64,000 nt of DNA. Source: a virus. Where the stretch lies: IMG/VR virus record IMGVR_UViG_3300020190_000007, positions 106,861 to 170,860 of that record, one strand, 5' to 3'. Position 1 is the first letter of the stretch, and each line of letters begins with the position of its first letter. Under the pieces are notes generated by a model. That model saw only the letters and a program-made list of their open reading frames with translations. It had not been told where the DNA came from and did not search any database. Positions 20,273 through 31,302 of this stretch are shown here, one piece after another. Made by a program: the position numbers and the translations under genes.

Positions 20273-22291
20273 ATGTCAGTAGATTTTTTCGAAGAAGGAA
20301 ACACAACCAACCCAAAGAAAACAAGAAAGGGTTCAACCACCCCTATCCTTGATAACTTTTCAAGGGATTTAAACAAAATGGTAGAAGAGGGTAAAATTGA
20401 CCCAATAATTGGGAGAGATGGTGAGGTTAAAAGAATTGCACAGATATTATCTAGAAAAAAGAAAAACAACGTAGTGATAATTGGTGACGCGGGTGTGGGT
20501 AAATCGGCTTTAGTTGAGAAACTCGCTCAGATGATTGTAAAAGGAGATTGTCCATCAAATCTTTTAGACAAACGAGTTGTATCATTAGATTTAACATCTT
20601 TGGTGGCTGGTACAAAATACAGAGGTCAGTTTGAAGAACGTATTAAAGCAGTTCTAAACGAAATACAGAATGAACCTAATGTAATTGTGTTTATTGATGA
20701 AATACACACAATGGTTGGTGCTGGCAACGCTAGCGGGTCAATGGACGCCGCTAATATTATGAAACCCGCATTAGCTCGAGGAGAAATTCAATGTATTGGG
20801 GCGACAACATTTGATGAATTTAAAAAACACATCGAGAAAGATGGTGCATTAGTTAGAAGATTTCAAAAAATAATTTTGAAAGAACCAAGTAAGGAAGAAA
20901 CAGTTCAAATTTTAAAAAATTTAAAAGATTCATATCAAAATTTTCACAAAGTATTTTATGAACCGGAGGTTTTTGAAACTATCGTGAATTTGTCATCAAG
21001 ATTTATCACAGACCGTCAGTTTCCCGATAAAGCAATTGACGTGATGGATGAATTGGGTTCAGAAAAAAAAATAAATACCAAAATTCCTGAGATTATTGAA
21101 AAACTAAAAAAGGAATCTGATGATTTAAAAAATAGGAAGATAGAAGTTGTAAAAAGTCAAAACTATGAACAAGCGGCTAAATTAAGAGATGAAGAAAGAA
21201 AATTACTGAGTAAATTAAATGATGAAAAAAAGAAGTGGTTAGACAAACAAAAAGACAATAAAACACCCGTAACGGTTGCAGATGTATATGAAATGATTTC
21301 ACAAATTACAGGTGTACCTCTCTCTAAGATTGATGATACAGAGACCGCAAATCTTTTGAACTTAGAAGAAAAATTAAAATCTAAAGTAATTGGTCAAGAC
21401 GAGGCTATTTCAATAATTTCCAAATCAATTAGAAGAAATAGGGTTGGTATTAAAGATACAAATAAACCAATAGGTTCTTTTATATTTTTAGGTTCAACTG
21501 GTGTTGGTAAAACATATCTCGCAAAATCGATTGCTGAACTACTTTTCGGAGACTCCGAAAAAGTAATTCGTGTTGATATGAGTGAATACATGGAAAAACA
21601 CAACGTGGCAAAATTAATTGGTTCACCTCCAGGTTATGTTGGTTATGATGAAGGAGGCCAACTTACTGAGAAGATTAAAAATAATCCATTTTCTGTGGTA
21701 TTGTTCGATGAGGTTGAAAAAGCACACAAAGACGTTTTCAATATCTTACTTCAAATTTTGGATGAAGGACATTTAACCGATTCGTTTGGAAGAAAAGTAA
21801 ACTTTACAAACACTATAGTAATCATGACATCCAATATTGGTGCAAAAAAAGTATCTGAATTTGGTAAGGGTGTTGGTTTTAGTTCATCATCTTCAGAATC
21901 ACAAAACTTTGAGGTTAAAAAATCAATCGTTCAAAAATCATTAAAACAACACTTTAACCCTGAGTTTTTGAATCGAGTAGACGACATAATCAGTTTTAAT
22001 TCGTTAGATAAAGATGTAATTAAAAAGATTATTGAAATTGAATTAAATAAGTTGTCTGTTAGATTAAAAGAAAAAAATTATAAAGTTTCTTTTGATAAGA
22101 CAATTGTGGAGAGAATATCGGAACTTAATATTCAAGAAGATTTTGGTGCAAGACCAGTTAAAAGAATCATCCAAAATATGTGTGAAGATTATTTAAGTGA
22201 TTCAATCTTAAAAGGCGAAATTAAGGAGAATGATTCCATTAATTTAAAATTTAAAGACGGTGAAATAAAAATTTTTAAAAAAAGGGTGTAA
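20273..22291 (+). CDS. clpC: ClpC/ClpB-family AAA+ ATPase lacking the N-terminal Clp-repeat domain
   Basis: GDAGVGKS and GSTGVGKT Walker A motifs, GTKYRGQFEER, GSPPGYVGYDEGGQLTE, UVR-like QNYEQAAKLRD, GVGF loop. Confidence 0.88.
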   Translation: MSVDFFEEGNTTNPKKTRKGSTTPILDNFSRDLNKMVEEGKIDPIIGRDGEVKRIAQILSRKKKNNVVIIGDAGVGKSALVEKLAQMIVKGDCPSNLLDKRVVSLDLTSLVAGTKYRGQFEERIKAVLNEIQNEPNVIVFIDEIHTMVGAGNASGSMDAANIMKPALARGEIQCIGATTFDEFKKHIEKDGALVRRFQKIILKEPSKEETVQILKNLKDSYQNFHKVFYEPEVFETIVNLSSRFITDRQFPDKAIDVMDELGSEKKINTKIPEIIEKLKKESDDLKNRKIEVVKSQNYEQAAKLRDEERKLLSKLNDEKKKWLDKQKDNKTPVTVADVYEMISQITGVPLSKIDDTETANLLNLEEKLKSKVIGQDEAISIISKSIRRNRVGIKDTNKPIGSFIFLGSTGVGKTYLAKSIAELLFGDSEKVIRVDMSEYMEKHNVAKLIGSPPGYVGYDEGGQLTEKIKNNPFSVVLFDEVEKAHKDVFNILLQILDEGHLTDSFGRKVNFTNTIVIMTSNIGAKKVSEFGKGVGFSSSSSESQNFEVKKSIVQKSLKQHFNPEFLNRVDDIISFNSLDKDVIKKIIEIELNKLSVRLKEKNYKVSFDKTIVERISELNIQEDFGARPVKRIIQNMCEDYLSDSILKGEIKENDSINLKFKDGEIKIFKKRV

Positions 22292-22329
22292 ATATTCATA
22301 CTTTTTAAAAAAACATATATATTTATATT

Positions 22330-22435
22330 CACACAGGATATCTTTGCCGATTTCCTTTCGTTTTATAGTCTGTGGTGTTGAAACCACAAAATGACCACAA
22401 ACCCCCGACTCTCTGTTGGGGGTTTTTATTTTTTT
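22330..22435 (+). ncRNA. putative small RNA (partner of the 31871-32040 RNA)
   Basis: TATTTATA motif 22320-22327; no ORF; CACAG/CTGTG stem enclosing a pyrimidine-rich loop; strong terminator 22399-22430. Confidence 0.45.
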
Positions 22436-22464
22436 GGTATTCTAAAAATTATTATTTATATTTG
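22433..22464 (+). promoter_or_regulatory. Bacteroidota sigma70-type promoter (-33 TTTG / -7 TAnnTTTG)
   Basis: TTTG 22433-22436, 20-nt spacer, TATATTTG 22457-22464. Confidence 0.7.
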
Positions 22465-22482
22465 CGATAAATCTATTTTACC

Positions 22483-22896
22483 ATGGAATATACAAAAGAT
22501 TTGATATTAGTTAGGGGTTTACCCGGCTCGGGTAAATCCACTTTAGGTGAGGTCATTCTTTATACCCCAAATAATCCAATGAAACCATTGTCGGCGGATG
22601 ATTTCTTTACAGACAAGGAAGGTAACTACAATTTTGACCCAATAAAATTAAGGGAAGCTCATAACGACTGCCAACAAAGGTGTGCAAATTTGATGATGAA
22701 TAGCGTCGTAAGAGTTGTTGTGTCAAATACGTTTACCCAAGAATGGGAAATGGAACCATATTTTGAAATGGCGAAAAGATACGGATATCGAATTCACACT
22801 ATTGTTGTTGAAAACAGACACGGTGGTGAAAATGTCCACGGAGTACCCTCTGACAAATTAGAGATTATGAAAAATCGTTTTGAAGTAAAACTGTGA
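22483..22896 (+). CDS. P-loop kinase (AAA_33 / polynucleotide kinase-like)
   Basis: LILVRGLPGSGKST, SADDFF, VVSNTFTQEWE, NVHGVP motifs. Confidence 0.85.
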   Translation: MEYTKDLILVRGLPGSGKSTLGEVILYTPNNPMKPLSADDFFTDKEGNYNFDPIKLREAHNDCQQRCANLMMNSVVRVVVSNTFTQEWEMEPYFEMAKRYGYRIHTIVVENRHGGENVHGVPSDKLEIMKNRFEVKL

Positions 22897-23231
22897 TAGT
22901 TAGGTTACAAAAATACCATGAGGATGGTTTAGATAATGTTGAGTTGATTTCTTTAGACCACGACTTGGGTGATAGCGCAATGAAAGAATGGTTACACGGT
23001 GTAGTTAAAAACTACGAAATCAACTACGACAATATCACCGAGAAAACAGGTATGGACTGTACCAAATGGTTAGTTAATCAGTGGTTGGATGGAAAACCTG
23101 TTGTTGATGTGGTTGTACATTCAGCCAACGCGGTTGGGAGTGCTAATATGATGGGGTACATCAATAATTATAGACATATCCACAGATTACCCCAAAACTG
23201 TGTGAGAGTTCAGTGGGACCATACGGTTTAA
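22893..23231 (+). pseudogene. N-terminally truncated cyclic-phosphate-processing receiver-like protein, probable deletion fusion
   Basis: ISLDHDLG, KTGMDC.KWL and VHSAN.VG motifs present but the first LxLDD strand is missing. Confidence 0.55.
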
Positions 23232-23713: not shown

Positions 23714-23968
23714 TTACTCAGATACTGAGTCGTCTGATTTCTTTTTATGTGAGAACTTGTCTACAGTATCTGCACCCATTCCAATTGCAGTAATAACCAT
23801 AACTGCGTTTACTAATTCTTCAGATGGTTTAATGTCACCATGAGAAAAAGAATTTACAGCCATGGTACCACAAAGGAATAATGCGCCTAATAGAGCAATT
23901 ACCGGTTTGATTGAAGTTGACCCTCTTTCATCTTTGAATAGGTCAATAATCCATTTTTTAAAGTTCAT
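23714..23968 (-). CDS. small two-TM membrane protein (holin-like)
   Basis: Two hydrophobic segments, charged C-terminus; TATTTATA motif at 24006-24013. Confidence 0.55.
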   Translation of the reverse strand: MNFKKWIIDLFKDERGSTSIKPVIALLGALFLCGTMAVNSFSHGDIKPSEELVNAVMVITAIGMGADTVDKFSHKKKSDDSVSE

Positions 23969-24103
23969 AGTTGTAATTTAGTTTAGTTTTATTTATTTGG
24001 TTTACTATAAATACCTCGGCAATGAAGATTGTTATATATATTTTTTTAAACATTTTGAAATATGAAATTTACTTGTTATAATTTATAATAAAAGTTAACA
24101 GAT

Positions 24104-24189
24104 GAATAAGAAGCGAAGTTGGTCGATTACATCTGACTTGAAATTAGGTGTACTACAAAGTATCGTAGGTTCAAATTTTACTCTCTCCG
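24104..24189 (+). pseudogene. degenerate tRNA-Ser(UGA)
   Basis: CTTGAAA anticodon loop, long variable arm, GGTTCAAAT T-loop and 3' TCTCTCCG are present, but the 5' acceptor strand and T-stem no longer pair. Confidence 0.6.
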
Positions 24190-24244
24190 ACACAGATGAA
24201 AGAGTGGTTCGATTTCCTATAGGGATACAACTAAAAAAGACAAT

Positions 24245-24487
24245 ATGTTAGAAAAAATTTTAGAACAATATGCAGATGAGGAAATTTTAATAGCGGATGG
24301 ATTTGATTCCGCGGTATTAGGAATTGATGAAAACTCTATGAGATTGATTTACTCGGTTGAAAAGTGTTTAAAGATTCTCATGGACCAAGGTATGGACATG
24401 ACTGAAGCGGTTGAATATTTTGATTTTAACGTGTCAGGTTCATACATGGGAGAGAAGACACCAATATGGTGTGATGATTTATTTTAA
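24245..24487 (+). CDS. conserved small phage hypothetical protein
   Basis: ADGFDSAVLG...YS..KC...EAVEYFDFNV.GSY.GE.TP pattern. Confidence 0.7.
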   Translation: MLEKILEQYADEEILIADGFDSAVLGIDENSMRLIYSVEKCLKILMDQGMDMTEAVEYFDFNVSGSYMGEKTPIWCDDLF

Positions 24488-24524
24488 AAAAACTTTTTGT
24501 ATATTTGTATATACTTATTAAACA

Positions 24525-24626
24525 ATGATGAACTTGGTACACATACAACAAACGTCAAACAACCCGCTAAGTGGTAATGGGAGAGGTTTGTATTTAAGTA
24601 ACCCAAGTTCGGATTTTAAGTTGTAA
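24525..24626 (+). CDS. putative leader peptide (33 aa, MMNLVHIQQTSNNPLSGNGRGLYLSNPSSDFKL)
   Basis: Follows TATATTTG (24500-24507); overlaps an antiterminator-like segment; ends 30 nt before a terminator. Confidence 0.5.
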   Translation: MMNLVHIQQTSNNPLSGNGRGLYLSNPSSDFKL

Positions 24627-24656
24627 GTTATACTGAGAGTAAACTCTAACTAATTG

Positions 24657-24692
24657 AACCCGAACTTTTATTTTTGAAGTTCGGGTTTTTTA
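24657..24692 (+). terminator. terminator/attenuator hairpin upstream of tRNA cluster
   Basis: AACCCGAACTT/AAGTTCGGGTT 11-bp stem followed by a U-run. Confidence 0.8.
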
Positions 24693-24745
24693 TTTTAAGT
24701 CTTTTTTTTGTATAATTGTACAATAGTTCAGATTGAACTGAATTT

Positions 24746-24757
24746 GTTCTTTGACAT
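24746..24757 (+). promoter_or_regulatory. boxA-like antitermination/processing motif GTTCTTTGACAT
   Basis: Same GTTCTTTGA core recurs at 28908 and 30680, each just upstream of a structured RNA. Confidence 0.55.
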
Positions 24758-24772
24758 GTTGGTGAAATTGAT

Positions 24773-24858
24773 GCCGCTGTGTTGAAACAGGTAGACAAGA
24801 GAGACTTAAAATTTCTTGGACAGTAATGTCCGTGCCGGTTCGATTCCGGCCAGCGGTA
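24773..24858 (+). tRNA. tRNA-Leu(UAA)
   Basis: GCCGCTG/CAGCGGT acceptor, CTTAAAA loop, long variable arm, GGTTCGATTCC. Confidence 0.93.
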
Positions 24859-24922
24859 CAAAAATGGAAAACTCCTCAAATCTACAACTACGGTTATCGT
24901 AGAAGGAAATTTCCATTTTAAT

Positions 24923-24994
24923 GGGCCCATAGGTAAAGGGATATACCCTCTCACTTCTAATGAGATATTCCAAGTTCGAATCTTGGTGGGCCTA
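24923..24994 (+). tRNA. tRNA-Arg(UCU)
   Basis: GGGCCCA/TGGGCCT acceptor, TCTCA-CTTCTAA-TGAGA anticodon arm, CCAAG-TTCGAAT-CTTGG T arm. Confidence 0.9.
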
Positions 24995-25170
24995 CGAATT
25001 TAAATGATGTCTCTTTCTATGACAATTTGAACATAAAAGAACACATTTATTAAGTTCATTTTTGATTGATTCATCAGACTTCAATCTGAGTTTTGACCAA
25101 TCAACATCTTTTTCAGAAGGATTTAAATGGTGAAAATCAAAAATGACATATGAACGATTGAACTTTTGTT
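24992..25170 (-). pseudogene. 3' remnant of an HNH endonuclease
   Basis: FDFHHLNPSEK...ELNKCVLLCSNCHRKRH; the N-terminal CxxC part is absent. Confidence 0.7.
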
Positions 25171-25272
25171 CGTACAGATTGTGGTAATTGGACATGTCAT
25201 ATGAATCCCTCGGGACATAAAAAGGTGGCAAATGCTGTTATCACACAGATGAAATTCAAAGTAAAAAACTAA
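25171..25272 (+). pseudogene. 3' remnant of a probable SGNH/GDSL hydrolase
   Basis: Plus frame reads RTDCGNWTCHMNPSGHKKVANAVITQMKFKVKN*, resembling the block V H.N..GH..hA motif. Confidence 0.45.
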
Positions 25273-25321
25273 TATCGCCGATTTAAACGATAATTCATTT
25301 TATCGGTTATTTCGACGATAC

Positions 25322-25395
25322 GGTCCCTTAGCTCAGTTGGTCAGAGCACCCGACTCATAATCGGTAGGTCCACGGTTCAAGCCCGTGAGGGACCA
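25322..25395 (+). tRNA. tRNA with CAU anticodon (probably Ile2, lysidine type; Met possible)
   Basis: GGTCCCT/AGGGACC acceptor, CTCATAA loop, overall similarity to bacterial tRNA-Ile2. Confidence 0.88.
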
Positions 25396-25421
25396 CGAGA
25401 TATTTATATAATAAAAAAATC

Positions 25422-25874
25422 ATGGGAATTGAATTAAAAAAGAAAAAACAACTTATCGAAAGATTAAACAAAAGACTCCTATCCGAAGCGGAAATGGAAT
25501 GTCCTAAAGCAACTCAAGATTTAGAGTTAAATACCAATAATAGAGACAAGTCAATAAAAGCGGATTATATAAAATATGGTCCACTTAATATTGACGAACC
25601 CGGTGATTATTGGGAAATGGTTGCATCTGATTGGAACACCACTGTTGAAGCTGCTAAAAAATCACTATGTGGTAATTGTGTAGCATTTGATATATCACCA
25701 AGAATGGATGAGTGTATGCCAGGTTCGGTTTCTGATGATAGTGGTAGATTAGGGTACTGTTGGATGCATCACTTTAAATGTCACTCCGCAAGAACATGTA
25801 AAACATGGGCAAAAGGTGGTCCAATTACCGAAGATACGGTGTCCTATGAGTGGCAACAAAAAAATCAAAAATAA
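25422..25874 (+). CDS. Cys-rich hypothetical phage protein
   Basis: CGNCVAF, GYCWMHHFKCHSARTC..W; TATTTATA at 25401-25408. Confidence 0.7.
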   Translation: MGIELKKKKQLIERLNKRLLSEAEMECPKATQDLELNTNNRDKSIKADYIKYGPLNIDEPGDYWEMVASDWNTTVEAAKKSLCGNCVAFDISPRMDECMPGSVSDDSGRLGYCWMHHFKCHSARTCKTWAKGGPITEDTVSYEWQQKNQK

Positions 25875-25943
25875 TATCAACATGTGGTCGTACCCTTAAC
25901 TCCAAAACCTATTAAGGAAATCGTTATGGGAAGACCACTCCAA

Positions 25944-26018
25944 GCGGGAGTAGCTCAGTGGTAGAGCATCGCCTTGCCAAGGCGAGGGCCGTGGGTTCAA
26001 ATCCCATTTCCCGCTCCA
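25944..26018 (+). tRNA. tRNA-Gly(GCC) with encoded CCA
   Basis: GCGGGAG/TTCCCGC acceptor, TTGCCAA loop, TCCA end. Confidence 0.95.
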
Positions 26019-26019
26019 A

Positions 26020-26080
26020 GTAGACCTTAAAAAGGGCCCTTCCGTTGCGTACGAAAACGGCTTGTTGGGCCCGGGTCTAC
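26020..26080 (+). ncRNA. GC-rich extended hairpin, unknown
   Basis: GTAGACC/GGTCTAC, GGGCCC/GGGCCC and CCGTT/AACGG nested stems. Confidence 0.35.
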
Positions 26081-26087
26081 CTTTTAA

Positions 26088-26236
26088 GCGAATATCGTAT
26101 AACCGACATTATCGGTTATATTAAAGACTACTTGGTAGTTATGTGTAATAATTTTCACCAACCCACATCAACCCCACAAAATTACTACACATAACAAGGT
26201 GTTACAGTCGCAAGGGTTCGAGCCCCTCACCTTCCG
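26088..26236 (+). pseudogene. mosaic relic: tRNA 5' end, diverged gene fragment, hairpin, tRNA 3' end
   Basis: GCGAATATCGTATAA tRNA-like start; 40-nt copy of 26297-26336; inverted repeat; AGGGTTCGAGCCCCTCACCTTCCG T arm and acceptor half. Confidence 0.5.
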
Positions 26237-26263
26237 CGGAGTACTTATATATTATAAAATGGT

Positions 26264-26725
26264 ATGAAAAAATTTAGAACATTGCACGGAACACTCATAA
26301 CCGACGTTATAGGTTACATCAAAGATTATTTGGTGGATAAAAACGATATTGAAATATTGATTGGTTCGGATTCACAATCATTTAGTAATTCTAAAACAGT
26401 TTACGGGGTGGTTATTGCTCTTTACACAAAAGGTAAGGGTGCTCACGTATTGTGTACTAAAGACACAATACCATTTGAAAAAGATACGTCAAGTAGACTA
26501 ATGACTGAAGTGTGGAAGGCGGTTGAAGTTGCTGAACACTTGAGAAACAATGGTTTACCAAAAGTCACTTGGATTGATATTGACCTTAATCCTGACCCAA
26601 AATACAAATCAAATAAGGTTTTAAGACAAGCCGTTGGTTTGGTTGAGGGTATGGGGTATAAAGTGAGATACAAACACGCGGGGGCTATGATGACCTACAG
26701 CGCGAATCATTTGGTGAGGATTTAA
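26264..26725 (+). CDS. RNase H-like YkuK (DUF458) family protein
   Basis: IGSDSQ, RLMTEV.KAVEVA, IDIDLN..P.YKSN motifs. Confidence 0.8.
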   Translation: MKKFRTLHGTLITDVIGYIKDYLVDKNDIEILIGSDSQSFSNSKTVYGVVIALYTKGKGAHVLCTKDTIPFEKDTSSRLMTEVWKAVEVAEHLRNNGLPKVTWIDIDLNPDPKYKSNKVLRQAVGLVEGMGYKVRYKHAGAMMTYSANHLVRI

Positions 26726-28895: not shown

Positions 28896-28923
28896 ACTCA
28901 CCCATTAGTTCTTTGAAATATTA

Positions 28924-30666: not shown

Positions 30667-30693
30667 CTATCTTTGTCTTGTTCTTTGACTTAT

Positions 30694-31269
30694 GGGGGTG
30701 TATGGAATTGATTGGCGTTGATATGGTAAATGGGCACGTAGTCGGATGTCATCTACGACTTTAATCCACGGTGGTAAATTTTAAACGGCAACGTTTATAA
30801 CCAAATGGAAGTAGCAGGTCTTCTTGCGACTTCTAAAGTTGCAGCCTAATTGGTTGTAACTAACGGGTCGACGGACAGATAACCTTGGAACAGAAGTCCT
30901 TGTAGGGTGTGGTTTCTATCCTAAAAGAAACAAAGTGGAAGATTAGTTCTCAGTAAACCGAACCACTTTAAAATAAGGGAATTGTGAATTTCGGAGTATT
31001 AGAAAATACTGTCCTAAACGTGTAGTCCATTTATTGTATTGCGAGCAAGACGCGGGTTTTTAATCGAGCCCCTTCATATCGTGAGATATGTCGAAAATCG
31101 GATGAACTCAGGGGAAGTCTTTTAGATAATCCTGAGCCAAGCCTGATAGGAACAGGAAGGTGCAGAGACTAGTGGGTGATAGACGCTTCTATCGTAATAC
31201 CACATTAGCGTCCGACATCTCGTTGAGATGATGATATAGTCCAATAATTGTCGAAACCCGCCACCTCCA
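30694..31269 (+). ncRNA. ssrA: tmRNA, intron-containing; tag peptide (A)GNVYNQMEVAGLLATSKVAA at 30787-30849
   Basis: GGGGGTG/CACCTCC-A acceptor with G3.U70; GAC-GCGGG-TTCGAAA-CCCGC T arm after splicing; tag ORF ends in AA; promoter TATCTTTG 30668-30675. Confidence 0.9.
31058..31250 (+). mobile_element. ORF-less group I intron in tmRNA T-loop
   Basis: 5' exon ends in U with P1 GGGT/GCCC; core motifs AATCCTGAGCCAAG, GGTGCAGAGACTAG, GATATAGTCC; terminal G; removal restores the T-loop. Confidence 0.88.
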
Positions 31270-31272
31270 CAT

Positions 31273-31302
31273 TAAAGGGAACCTCAAAAGGGTTCCCTTT
31301 TA
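31273..31302. terminator. bidirectional terminator between tmRNA and nuclease gene
   Basis: AAAGGGAACC/GGTTCCCTTT hairpin. Confidence 0.75.

Follow-up and report, generated by a model that had tools for sequence, protein, structure and literature searches.

A 64,000-nucleotide (nt) stretch of viral DNA, positions 106,861 to 170,860 of the IMG/VR record IMGVR_UViG_3300020190_000007 (hereafter called the window), contains a short leader region in front of a block of phage transfer RNA (tRNA) genes. The leader has the layout of a transcription attenuator, and its central codons match the set of tRNA genes that lies downstream in related phages. Judged from the sequence and its conservation, it is reasonably probable that the element is a ribosome-mediated attenuator of the trp/his type that gates read-through into the tRNA block, and tRNA output probably rises when the codons of the block are decoded slowly. 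Translation-dependent switching, the direction of the response and the activities of the two candidate promoters, P1 and P2, are what we infer from this layout. An initial annotation of the region had listed a promoter box, an open reading frame (ORF), a terminator, an ORF-internal copy of one terminator arm at 24605-24615, a boxA-like element and tRNA genes, and the coordinates of all these features were correct (Table 1).

The leader and its tRNA array in related phages

The window stems from a 170-kb virus record that is estimated to be 55% complete and has a G+C content of about 32%. Relatives were reached via a gene of 80 amino acids (aa) that is located just 5' of the leader, which led to 12 viral contigs with a matching neighbourhood, and further relatives were retrieved by pattern scans of viral and metagenome collections. 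In total, 29 distinct leader versions were obtained, all from uncultured giant phages. A search of the GenBank phage collection yielded matches to tRNAs and HNH endonucleases and otherwise no relatives. The whole layout is kept in the 29 distinct versions, and the fold of the leader region, with a z-score of -3.84, is above chance.

In the relatives, the leader is not found at the head of the array, but in the middle of about 25 tRNA genes, with block 1 coming first, then the 80-aa gene, the leader and finally block 2. Block 1 comprises the tRNAs for Ala, Phe, Lys, Val, Trp, Arg-ACG, Cys, His, Ile-GAU, Met, Thr, Asp, Ser-UGA and Glu. Block 2 comprises Leu-UAA, Arg-UCU, Pro, Asn, Leu-UAG, Tyr, Ile-UAU, a tRNA with a CAU anticodon, Gly-GCC, Gly-UCC, Gln and Ser-GCU; in a more distant group, family B, it additionally contains Val and sometimes Thr. 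A second leader precedes block 1 of the relatives and is termed leader 1; the leader under study is accordingly termed leader 2. Leader 2 lies directly 5' of tRNA-Leu(UAA) in every case, even when extra DNA follows the 80-aa gene.

The window phage has an eroded version of this array. It lacks leader 1 and block 1 as well as 8 of the 12 tRNAs of block 2, such that four tRNAs remain in the 170-kb record and 21 of the 25 ancestral ones are gone; about 2.6 kb of the relative L001 corresponds to 156 nt in the window. The leader, its helices, the terminator and the box are intact and are 93% identical to those of L111, a relative that retains block 1. The initial annotation had assigned the CAU tRNA to the Ile2 type, and this assignment was borne out, as the genes that it matches best in each of the 5426 E. 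coli genomes are annotated as tRNA-Ile (81-84% full-length).

The leader ORF carries a coding signature

The frame of the leader ORF is open in 20 of 20 distinct peptides, while frames +1 and +2 are closed in all 20. The length varies between 33 and 36 codons across versions, with all insertions and deletions being multiples of three, and synonymous variation is found at the third positions of Pro, Leu, Asn and Gly codons. These patterns indicate that the leader ORF is under coding selection and hence probably translated, in support of the short ORF proposed in the initial annotation.

Three helices of the predicted RNA switch

Four segments, numbered 1 to 4 from 5' to 3' (Table 1), can form three helices. 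The terminator stem (helix 3:4; 24656-24688) consists of 13 pairs, five of which are G-C, with a loop of 7 nt, and is followed by TTTTTTATTTT. Within the end of the ORF, AAGTTCGGATT at 24605-24615 is 91% complementary to the terminator 5' arm at 24657-24667, which provides the basis for an antiterminator (helix 2:3). A repeat search of the window revealed, in addition, helix 1:2, which had escaped the initial annotation. The layout of a terminator and an ORF-internal candidate antiterminator, proposed before for the window alone, turned out to be kept in the relatives, and a covarying anti-antiterminator completes the set of helices 1:2, 2:3 and 3:4.

When RNAalifold was applied to the leader versions without guidance, it returned exactly helices 1:2 and 3:4. 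In helix 1:2, three pairs are changed on both sides, i.e. 60-138 (18 UA, 10 AU), 62-136 (16 GC, 12 AU) and 63-135 (13 GC, 11 AU), and these changes arose in both sequence groups. The covariation score of this helix was 0.241, compared to 0.136 in shuffled alignments, none of 500 of which reached the observed value, and it was at most 0.12 when the partner was slid along the sequence. In the terminator, the core CCCGAAC/GTTCGGG is invariant and the outer pairs covary. A pattern scan that made use of the ORF only recovered the identical terminator core in 16 of 16 loci, and therefore its conservation is not an artefact of the search pattern.

Six core pairs of helix 2:3 are invariant, and its pairing is possible in every version. 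Because this core never varies, covariation cannot be shown for it. The agreement of pair 138-205, the one pair of this helix that varies, in 23 of 28 versions was considered as proof of helix 2:3 and was set aside, as it largely follows clades. The ORF sequence GTTCGG is likewise invariant. It includes a Ser codon TCG that is present in 29 of 29 versions, although TCG makes up 7.8% of the Ser codons of the genome and the leader varies at its other Ser positions. The residue preceding this Ser switches between Ser and Cys, and yet the bases GT are kept. Furthermore, the sole core change in segment 3 is an A to G exchange that still allows pairing (G-U) with both possible partners. Taken together, the invariant TCG, the kept GT and the nature of this sole change point to a constraint at the RNA level. 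When segment 1 and the loop were masked, all 29 versions had helix 2:3 in the minimum-energy fold of the region that extends from segment 2 to segment 3, with energies of -7.8 to -16.9 kcal/mol (window -15.5), compared to -13 to -18 kcal/mol for the terminator alone (window -17.8). In the window, helix 2:3 spans the entire terminator 5' arm.

A search of 23900-26300 against Rfam at E values up to 1 returned tRNAs only, i.e. neither a T-box nor any other family was found on the leader.

Leader codons match the downstream tRNA block

Codons 6-24 are the proposed stall window. In the window phage, 16 of these 19 codons are read by the ancestral downstream block, compared to 17 to 19 of them in the relatives. 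Across versions, the codon set of block 2, which accounts for 40.6% of the codons of the phage, makes up 62-81% of the codons of the leaders and 74-100% of codons 6-24. For comparison, the 24 non-Met tRNA species were randomly split into sets of equal size in 100,000 trials. At most 6 of the 100,000 random partitions reached the observed match for most leaders, the exception being the leader of L138, for which about 2 in 1,000 did. In addition, each leader makes use of every one of the 11 to 13 downstream tRNA species at least once. Among 1299 windows of 33 codons taken from real genes, none reached the fraction observed in the leader and four used all 11 species. In family B, in which tRNA-Val belongs to block 2, the leaders contain a conserved GTG in the stall window.

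Since codons 6-24 are almost wholly read by the block, slow decoding of them would raise exactly those tRNAs. The codons that do not fit are found at both ends of the leader, namely codons 2 and 5 and the codons from TCG onward. A ribosome that stalled at these end codons would either sit on segment 1, right at the beginning, or hide segment 2.

A second leader in the relatives

Leader 1 of the relatives is unrelated in sequence to leader 2. It consists of a TATCTTTG promoter and an ORF of 29 to 34 codons. Of its 26 to 31 codons, 23 to 27 belong to block 1, and 13 of 13 species of block 1 are used; this codon match was reached by none of 100,000 random partitions. Its segment 2, CCCGAGGT (at the 3' end), is exactly complementary to the 5' arm of the terminator of leader 1. 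The gene for tRNA-Ala starts directly after the T tract of this terminator, leaving no room for a promoter in between, and read-through is therefore the only visible route into block 1. Leader 1 is thus the strongest argument, at the level of sequence, for a design that would gate the transcription of tRNA genes.

Table 1. Features of leader 2 and of the tRNA genes following it in the window
Feature	Position	Strand	Remarks
P1 -7 box (putative), TATATTTG	24500..24507	+	Bacteroidota sigma-A type; predicted start near 24512
Short A/U-rich 5' untranslated region (UTR) with ATACTTATTA	24511..24524	+	nearly invariant in 29 versions
Leader ORF 2	24525..24626	+	ATG, 33 codons; stop at 24624; peptide motif N-P-L-S-G-N-G-R-G ... 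S-S-D
Segment 1, GAACTTGG	24530..24537	+	predicted anti-antiterminator; perfect 8-nt complement of CCAAGTTC (24603-24610)
Codons 6-24, proposed stall window	24540..24596	+	geometry estimated from ribosome footprint size
Segment 2	24603..24616	+	24603-24610 pairs with segment 1; 24605-24616 (AAGTTCGGATTT) can pair with the entire terminator 5' arm
Segment 3, terminator 5' arm	24656..24667	+	
Segment 4, terminator 3' arm and T tract	24677..24696	+	
P2-like copy of P1	24705..24720	+	15/16 (94%) identical to 24494-24509; -7 box TATAATTG (24711-24718)
Small hairpin between P2 and box	24725..24744	+	found only in the closest group of the window; L138 with a different hairpin there
boxA-like element, TGTTCTTTGACATGTTGG	24745..24763	+	core invariant in relatives; TGTTCTTTGACAT at 24745-24757
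tRNA-Leu(UAA)	24773..24859	+	first gene of block 2
tRNA-Arg(UCU)	24923..24995	+	
tRNA with CAU anticodon, Ile2 (lysidine) type	25322..25396	+	
tRNA-Gly(GCC)	25944..26018	+	last tRNA remaining in the window phage

Promoter-like elements on both sides of the terminator

The motif TAnnTTTG is the -7 box that sigma-A recognizes in Flavobacterium, where it spans positions -12 to -5 (PMC9723704). In the window, the putative P1 has no TTTG at -33, whereas the relatives have TTTG-N19-TATCTTTG. Genome-wide, TAnnTTTG is only slightly enriched in non-coding DNA, with 25 of 255 copies in the 7% of the sequence that is non-coding according to crude gene calls. The promoter assignment is suggested by position and the literature, and not by the genome-wide count. 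The 5' UTR contains no Shine-Dalgarno motif; in Bacteroidota, this motif is typically missing. A scan for sigma-70 promoters gave fewer matches than were obtained with shuffled sequences, and this model was discarded as inapplicable to a host of the Bacteroidota type. Likewise, ATACTTAT was considered as a general promoter motif of the phage and was dropped, because 10 copies were found compared to about 27 expected, and these were not positioned before genes. The sequence ATACTTATT (24511-24520 in the window) is conserved in both leaders without being a general motif of the genome, and lies 3' of the -7 box in leader 2 and 5' of the -7 box in leader 1.

Between the terminator and the tRNAs, a copy of P1 is present that we call P2. 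In the relatives, 18 of 28 spacers between the terminator and the box contained a perfect -7 box, compared to 15% of shuffled spacers, and in 14 of 28 it was combined with a TTTG at -33, compared to 7% of shuffled spacers. In several relatives, the start predicted for P2 falls on the first G of boxA, GTTCTTTGA, and the predicted start is likewise on the first G of boxA in the same module that precedes the gene for transfer-messenger RNA (tmRNA) in the window (30668-30691). Based on this conservation, a separate promoter for block 2 is very probable. The P2 of the window has one mismatch to TAnnTTTG, lacks the TTTG at -33, and is separated from the box by a 26-nt insert with a small hairpin, and it may therefore be weak.

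A boxA-like element behind the terminator

The boxA-like motif that had been noticed in the initial annotation matches the boxA of the ribosomal RNA (rrn) leaders of Bacteroidota. In 54 of 96 such leaders, a match to the phage box with at most three mismatches was found at a median distance of 138 nt before the 16S gene, compared to 5 of 96 for shuffled sequences; the common form in rrn leaders is AGTTC(T/A)TTGA(C/A)AnATTG. On this comparison, the phage box is the rrn boxA of the host phylum. In rrn leaders, boxB occupies the position that corresponds to that of the small hairpin preceding the box in the window. In the relatives, the box is also found between tRNA-Ala and tRNA-Phe, and in the window, a weaker boxA-like sequence, AGTTCTTTGAAAT, at 28907-28919, 3' of a gene of 690 aa, precedes an array of structured RNAs. 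From its distribution, the box seems to mark several stable-RNA units of the window phage. By analogy with rrn operons, Nus factors would be recruited at the box, and because it lies 3' of the terminator, a Nus-type resistance to termination would be gained only after the attenuation decision.

Proposed mechanism and alternatives

The following mechanism would be in accordance with these features. Transcripts that start at P1, as well as any that arrive from upstream, would carry the 33-codon leader ORF. As long as no ribosome is on the leader, segments 1 and 2 would pair, and hence the 3:4 terminator would form. A ribosome that reaches the last codons or the stop codon would cover segment 2, and the terminator would form again. 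In contrast, if a ribosome lingered in codons 6-24, segment 2 would take up the whole 5' arm of the terminator, and the antiterminated polymerase would continue through the P2-like element and the host-type boxA into tRNA-Leu and beyond. Slow decoding of the codons of the downstream block would thereby raise the transcription of those same tRNAs, which would constitute a feedback that depends on the decoding rate. For amino-acid operons of Flavobacterium, leader-peptide attenuation has been reported to be likely (PMC9723704).

Several observations weigh against this interpretation. Helix 2:3 rests on invariance and not on covariation, and the peptide motif GNG(R/Y)G is kept more strictly than mere codon sampling would require. 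In the window genome alone, 8 of 31 leader codons match the four remaining tRNAs, which is not significant (p=0.08); the initial annotation had already called the codon match weak, and this holds for its own genome, whereas the match to the ancestral downstream block is strong. In the arrays of L140 and L143, the terminator, P2, the box and tRNA-Leu come immediately after tRNA-Glu, and both the ORF of leader 2 and the 80-aa gene are missing; these two arrays are natural leader-less comparators. Finally, the conserved TTTG-N19-TAnnTTTG element between the terminator and the tRNAs implies that the tRNAs need not depend on read-through and that the control is not exclusive. The initial annotation had named a tRNA promoter downstream of the terminator as one of two findings that would refute its reading. 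Such a promoter is probably present for block 2, in the form of the P2-like element, but not for leader 1 of the relatives. The statements that the leader controls the cluster and that the tRNAs are switched on only upon depletion of host tRNAs thus went too far; the attenuator would add a conditional read-through to a likely basal promoter. An anticodon nuclease as the trigger is speculation.

The presence of P2 is also in line with a different explanation, namely that P1, the ORF and the terminator make up a unit complete in itself, either an autonomous micro-gene or a small RNA with a dual function, whose peptide or RNA product acts in trans, with the tRNAs being transcribed from P2 alone and helix 1:2 tuning translation or stability. 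Not only is P2 conserved with a predicted start at boxA, but L140 and L143 keep the terminator, P2 and the box without the ORF, the peptide motif is conserved, and attenuator RNAs and leader peptides of Sinorhizobium can act in trans (PMC6614838, PMC7298713). However, the match of the central codons to the downstream block, the joint freezing of TCG and the terminator core, and the existence of an unrelated leader 1 that matches the other block and abuts tRNA-Ala without a promoter would all be left unexplained, and we regard a micro-gene as unlikely. The good conservation of both peptides, with GNG(R/Y)G as the motif of leader 2 and MSFTICSKWAEV as that of leader 1 in the relatives, could instead be explained by an arrest of the nascent peptide, in which case the same RNA switch would respond to a small molecule or factor and not to the tRNA supply. 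It is difficult to reconcile with arrest that the two leaders have no common motif and each matches its own tRNA block, and that the synonymous choices ATA, AGT and AGA fit the block as well. We also know of no arrest motif that could be recognized in the leader peptides, which counts against this explanation, and it is considerably less probable than the micro-gene.

Two further alternatives carry little weight. The switch of the window phage could be an evolutionary relic that is intact in sequence and no longer matters, given that leader 1 and block 1 have been deleted, four tRNAs are left and a remnant of an HNH gene lies inside the array; but the leader, the helices, the terminator and the box are all intact and have retained their high identity to L111, and a relic is very improbable. 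A non-coding small RNA gene with a fortuitous ORF would account for the promoter, the roughly 180 nt of structured sequence, the terminator and the lack of an Rfam match. With an ORF that is open in all versions, the other frames closed, in-frame insertions and deletions and a synonymous pattern, such a gene is hardly credible.

Regarding attenuation, the balance of the evidence tips slightly towards a wider design, a regulon of giant Bacteroidota phages in which a split tRNA array has each of its blocks gated by a leader written in the codons of that block, with feedback from the speed of codon reading. The window would then contain leader 2 of a pair of leaders that together account for almost all of the genetic code, and this leader would lie beside a tmRNA gene and genes resembling RNA repair genes, in a translation-maintenance island that could respond to the loss of host tRNAs.

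Comparison with known systems

The leader resembles the trpL, hisL, leuL and pheL leaders of enterobacteria and the multivalent thrL and ilvL leaders in having a short ORF that is probably translated and a predicted set of mutually exclusive helices 1:2, 2:3 and 3:4. As in the attenuators of amino-acid operons, the terminator is intrinsic, the regulatory codons are cognate to the product that is supplied, and no protein factor would be needed. However, those attenuators control genes for enzymes, whereas the phage element would control phage tRNA genes. In contrast to the amino-acid leaders, the phage leader does not contain a run of one codon, but samples 11 to 13 tRNA species, once or a few times each. 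In addition, segment 1 occupies codons 2-5, segment 2 still belongs to the ORF and precedes its stop codon, and the terminator has a promoter-like element and a boxA behind it. The tRNA genes as target, the phage setting, the leader with many species and the boxA after the terminator set the phage element apart from classical attenuators.

The pheM leader of pheST is similar in that the speed at which cognate leader codons are read determines the expression of a gene that belongs to the decoding apparatus. It senses one amino acid or tRNA and controls a protein gene, that of a synthetase, whereas the phage element would sense many species and control tRNA genes. T-box riboswitches share the tRNA status as signal and the choice between terminator and antiterminator as output. 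They bind uncharged tRNA directly and without translation, whereas the phage ORF is under coding selection and no T-box match was found. The antitermination leaders of rrn operons (boxA and boxB; NusB/NusE) have a similar box sequence and are comparable in their location at the head of stable-RNA units, which in the phage are tRNAs, tmRNA and an array of structured RNAs. Unlike in rrn leaders, the phage box is found 3' of an attenuator and, in the relatives, also between two tRNAs.

Phage tRNAs are usually viewed as a fixed supplement that matches codon usage or as spares against the cleavage of host tRNAs. To our knowledge, the control of their expression has hardly been described, and a literature search in an incomplete library did not reveal a paper on such control of tRNA genes. 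If the proposed mechanism is true, decoding speed would be fed back directly to the transcription of tRNA genes, and classical attenuation would be extended from the supply of amino acids to the tRNA pool. The leader would be a compact sensor of tRNA shortage, and the splitting of the array into fixed blocks would be accounted for. The boxA finding, in turn, suggests that phages borrow the rRNA antitermination of the host for stable-RNA operons.

Neighbouring genes and further observations

Upstream of the leader, the region 20273-23231 encodes a ClpB/ClpC-like ATPase with two AAA domains (20273-22291), a P-loop kinase of the polynucleotide-kinase type (AAA_33; 22483-22896) and a protein with a cREC_REC "cyclic-phosphate processing" domain (22893-23231). 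Taken with the tRNA and tmRNA genes, they have the appearance of an RNA-repair and translation-rescue island. The tmRNA gene (region 30668-31290) gave an Rfam match at 30694-31079 with 35 bits, which is below the family cut-off, and an E value of 2e-12. Close to the 3' end, the gene is split by a group I intron (31048-31260, 68.8 bits), and a terminator is located near 31270-31295. On its 5' side, TATCTTTG is followed after 3 nt by the boxA-like sequence TGTTCTTTGACTT.

The region 24050-24251 is the scar of the deletion of leader 1 and block 1. It contains a degenerate promoter region of leader 1, followed by an ORF of 49 codons (24102-24251), and the final 25 nt or so of tRNA-Glu persist at 24206-24230 (GGTTCGATTTCC...); block 1 is retained in L111, the closest relative. 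Between tRNA-Arg and tRNA-Ile2, a remnant of an HNH endonuclease gene (79 aa; 24992-25231, minus strand) was found that matches HNH families of PHROG with E values down to 2e-17, and homing endonucleases may have contributed to the erosion of the array.

In assembled metatranscriptome contigs, the tRNAs were covered, mostly by sequences from other organisms, and none of the contigs covered any part of 24520-24775. Contigs from river metatranscriptomes differ by at most one letter from the window over 25153-25421 and 25935-26100, including the spacer before tRNA-Ile2. Such near identity indicates that RNA libraries contain the phage or a close twin of it, with a carry-over of DNA being possible.

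In two viral contigs, L119 and L141, a different ORF of 34 codons (MRTTGTTYQPKQY...) is present about 230 nt 5' of the pattern match, with a similar terminator, a box and tRNA-Pro behind it. This ORF may represent another leader variant in a different array layout.

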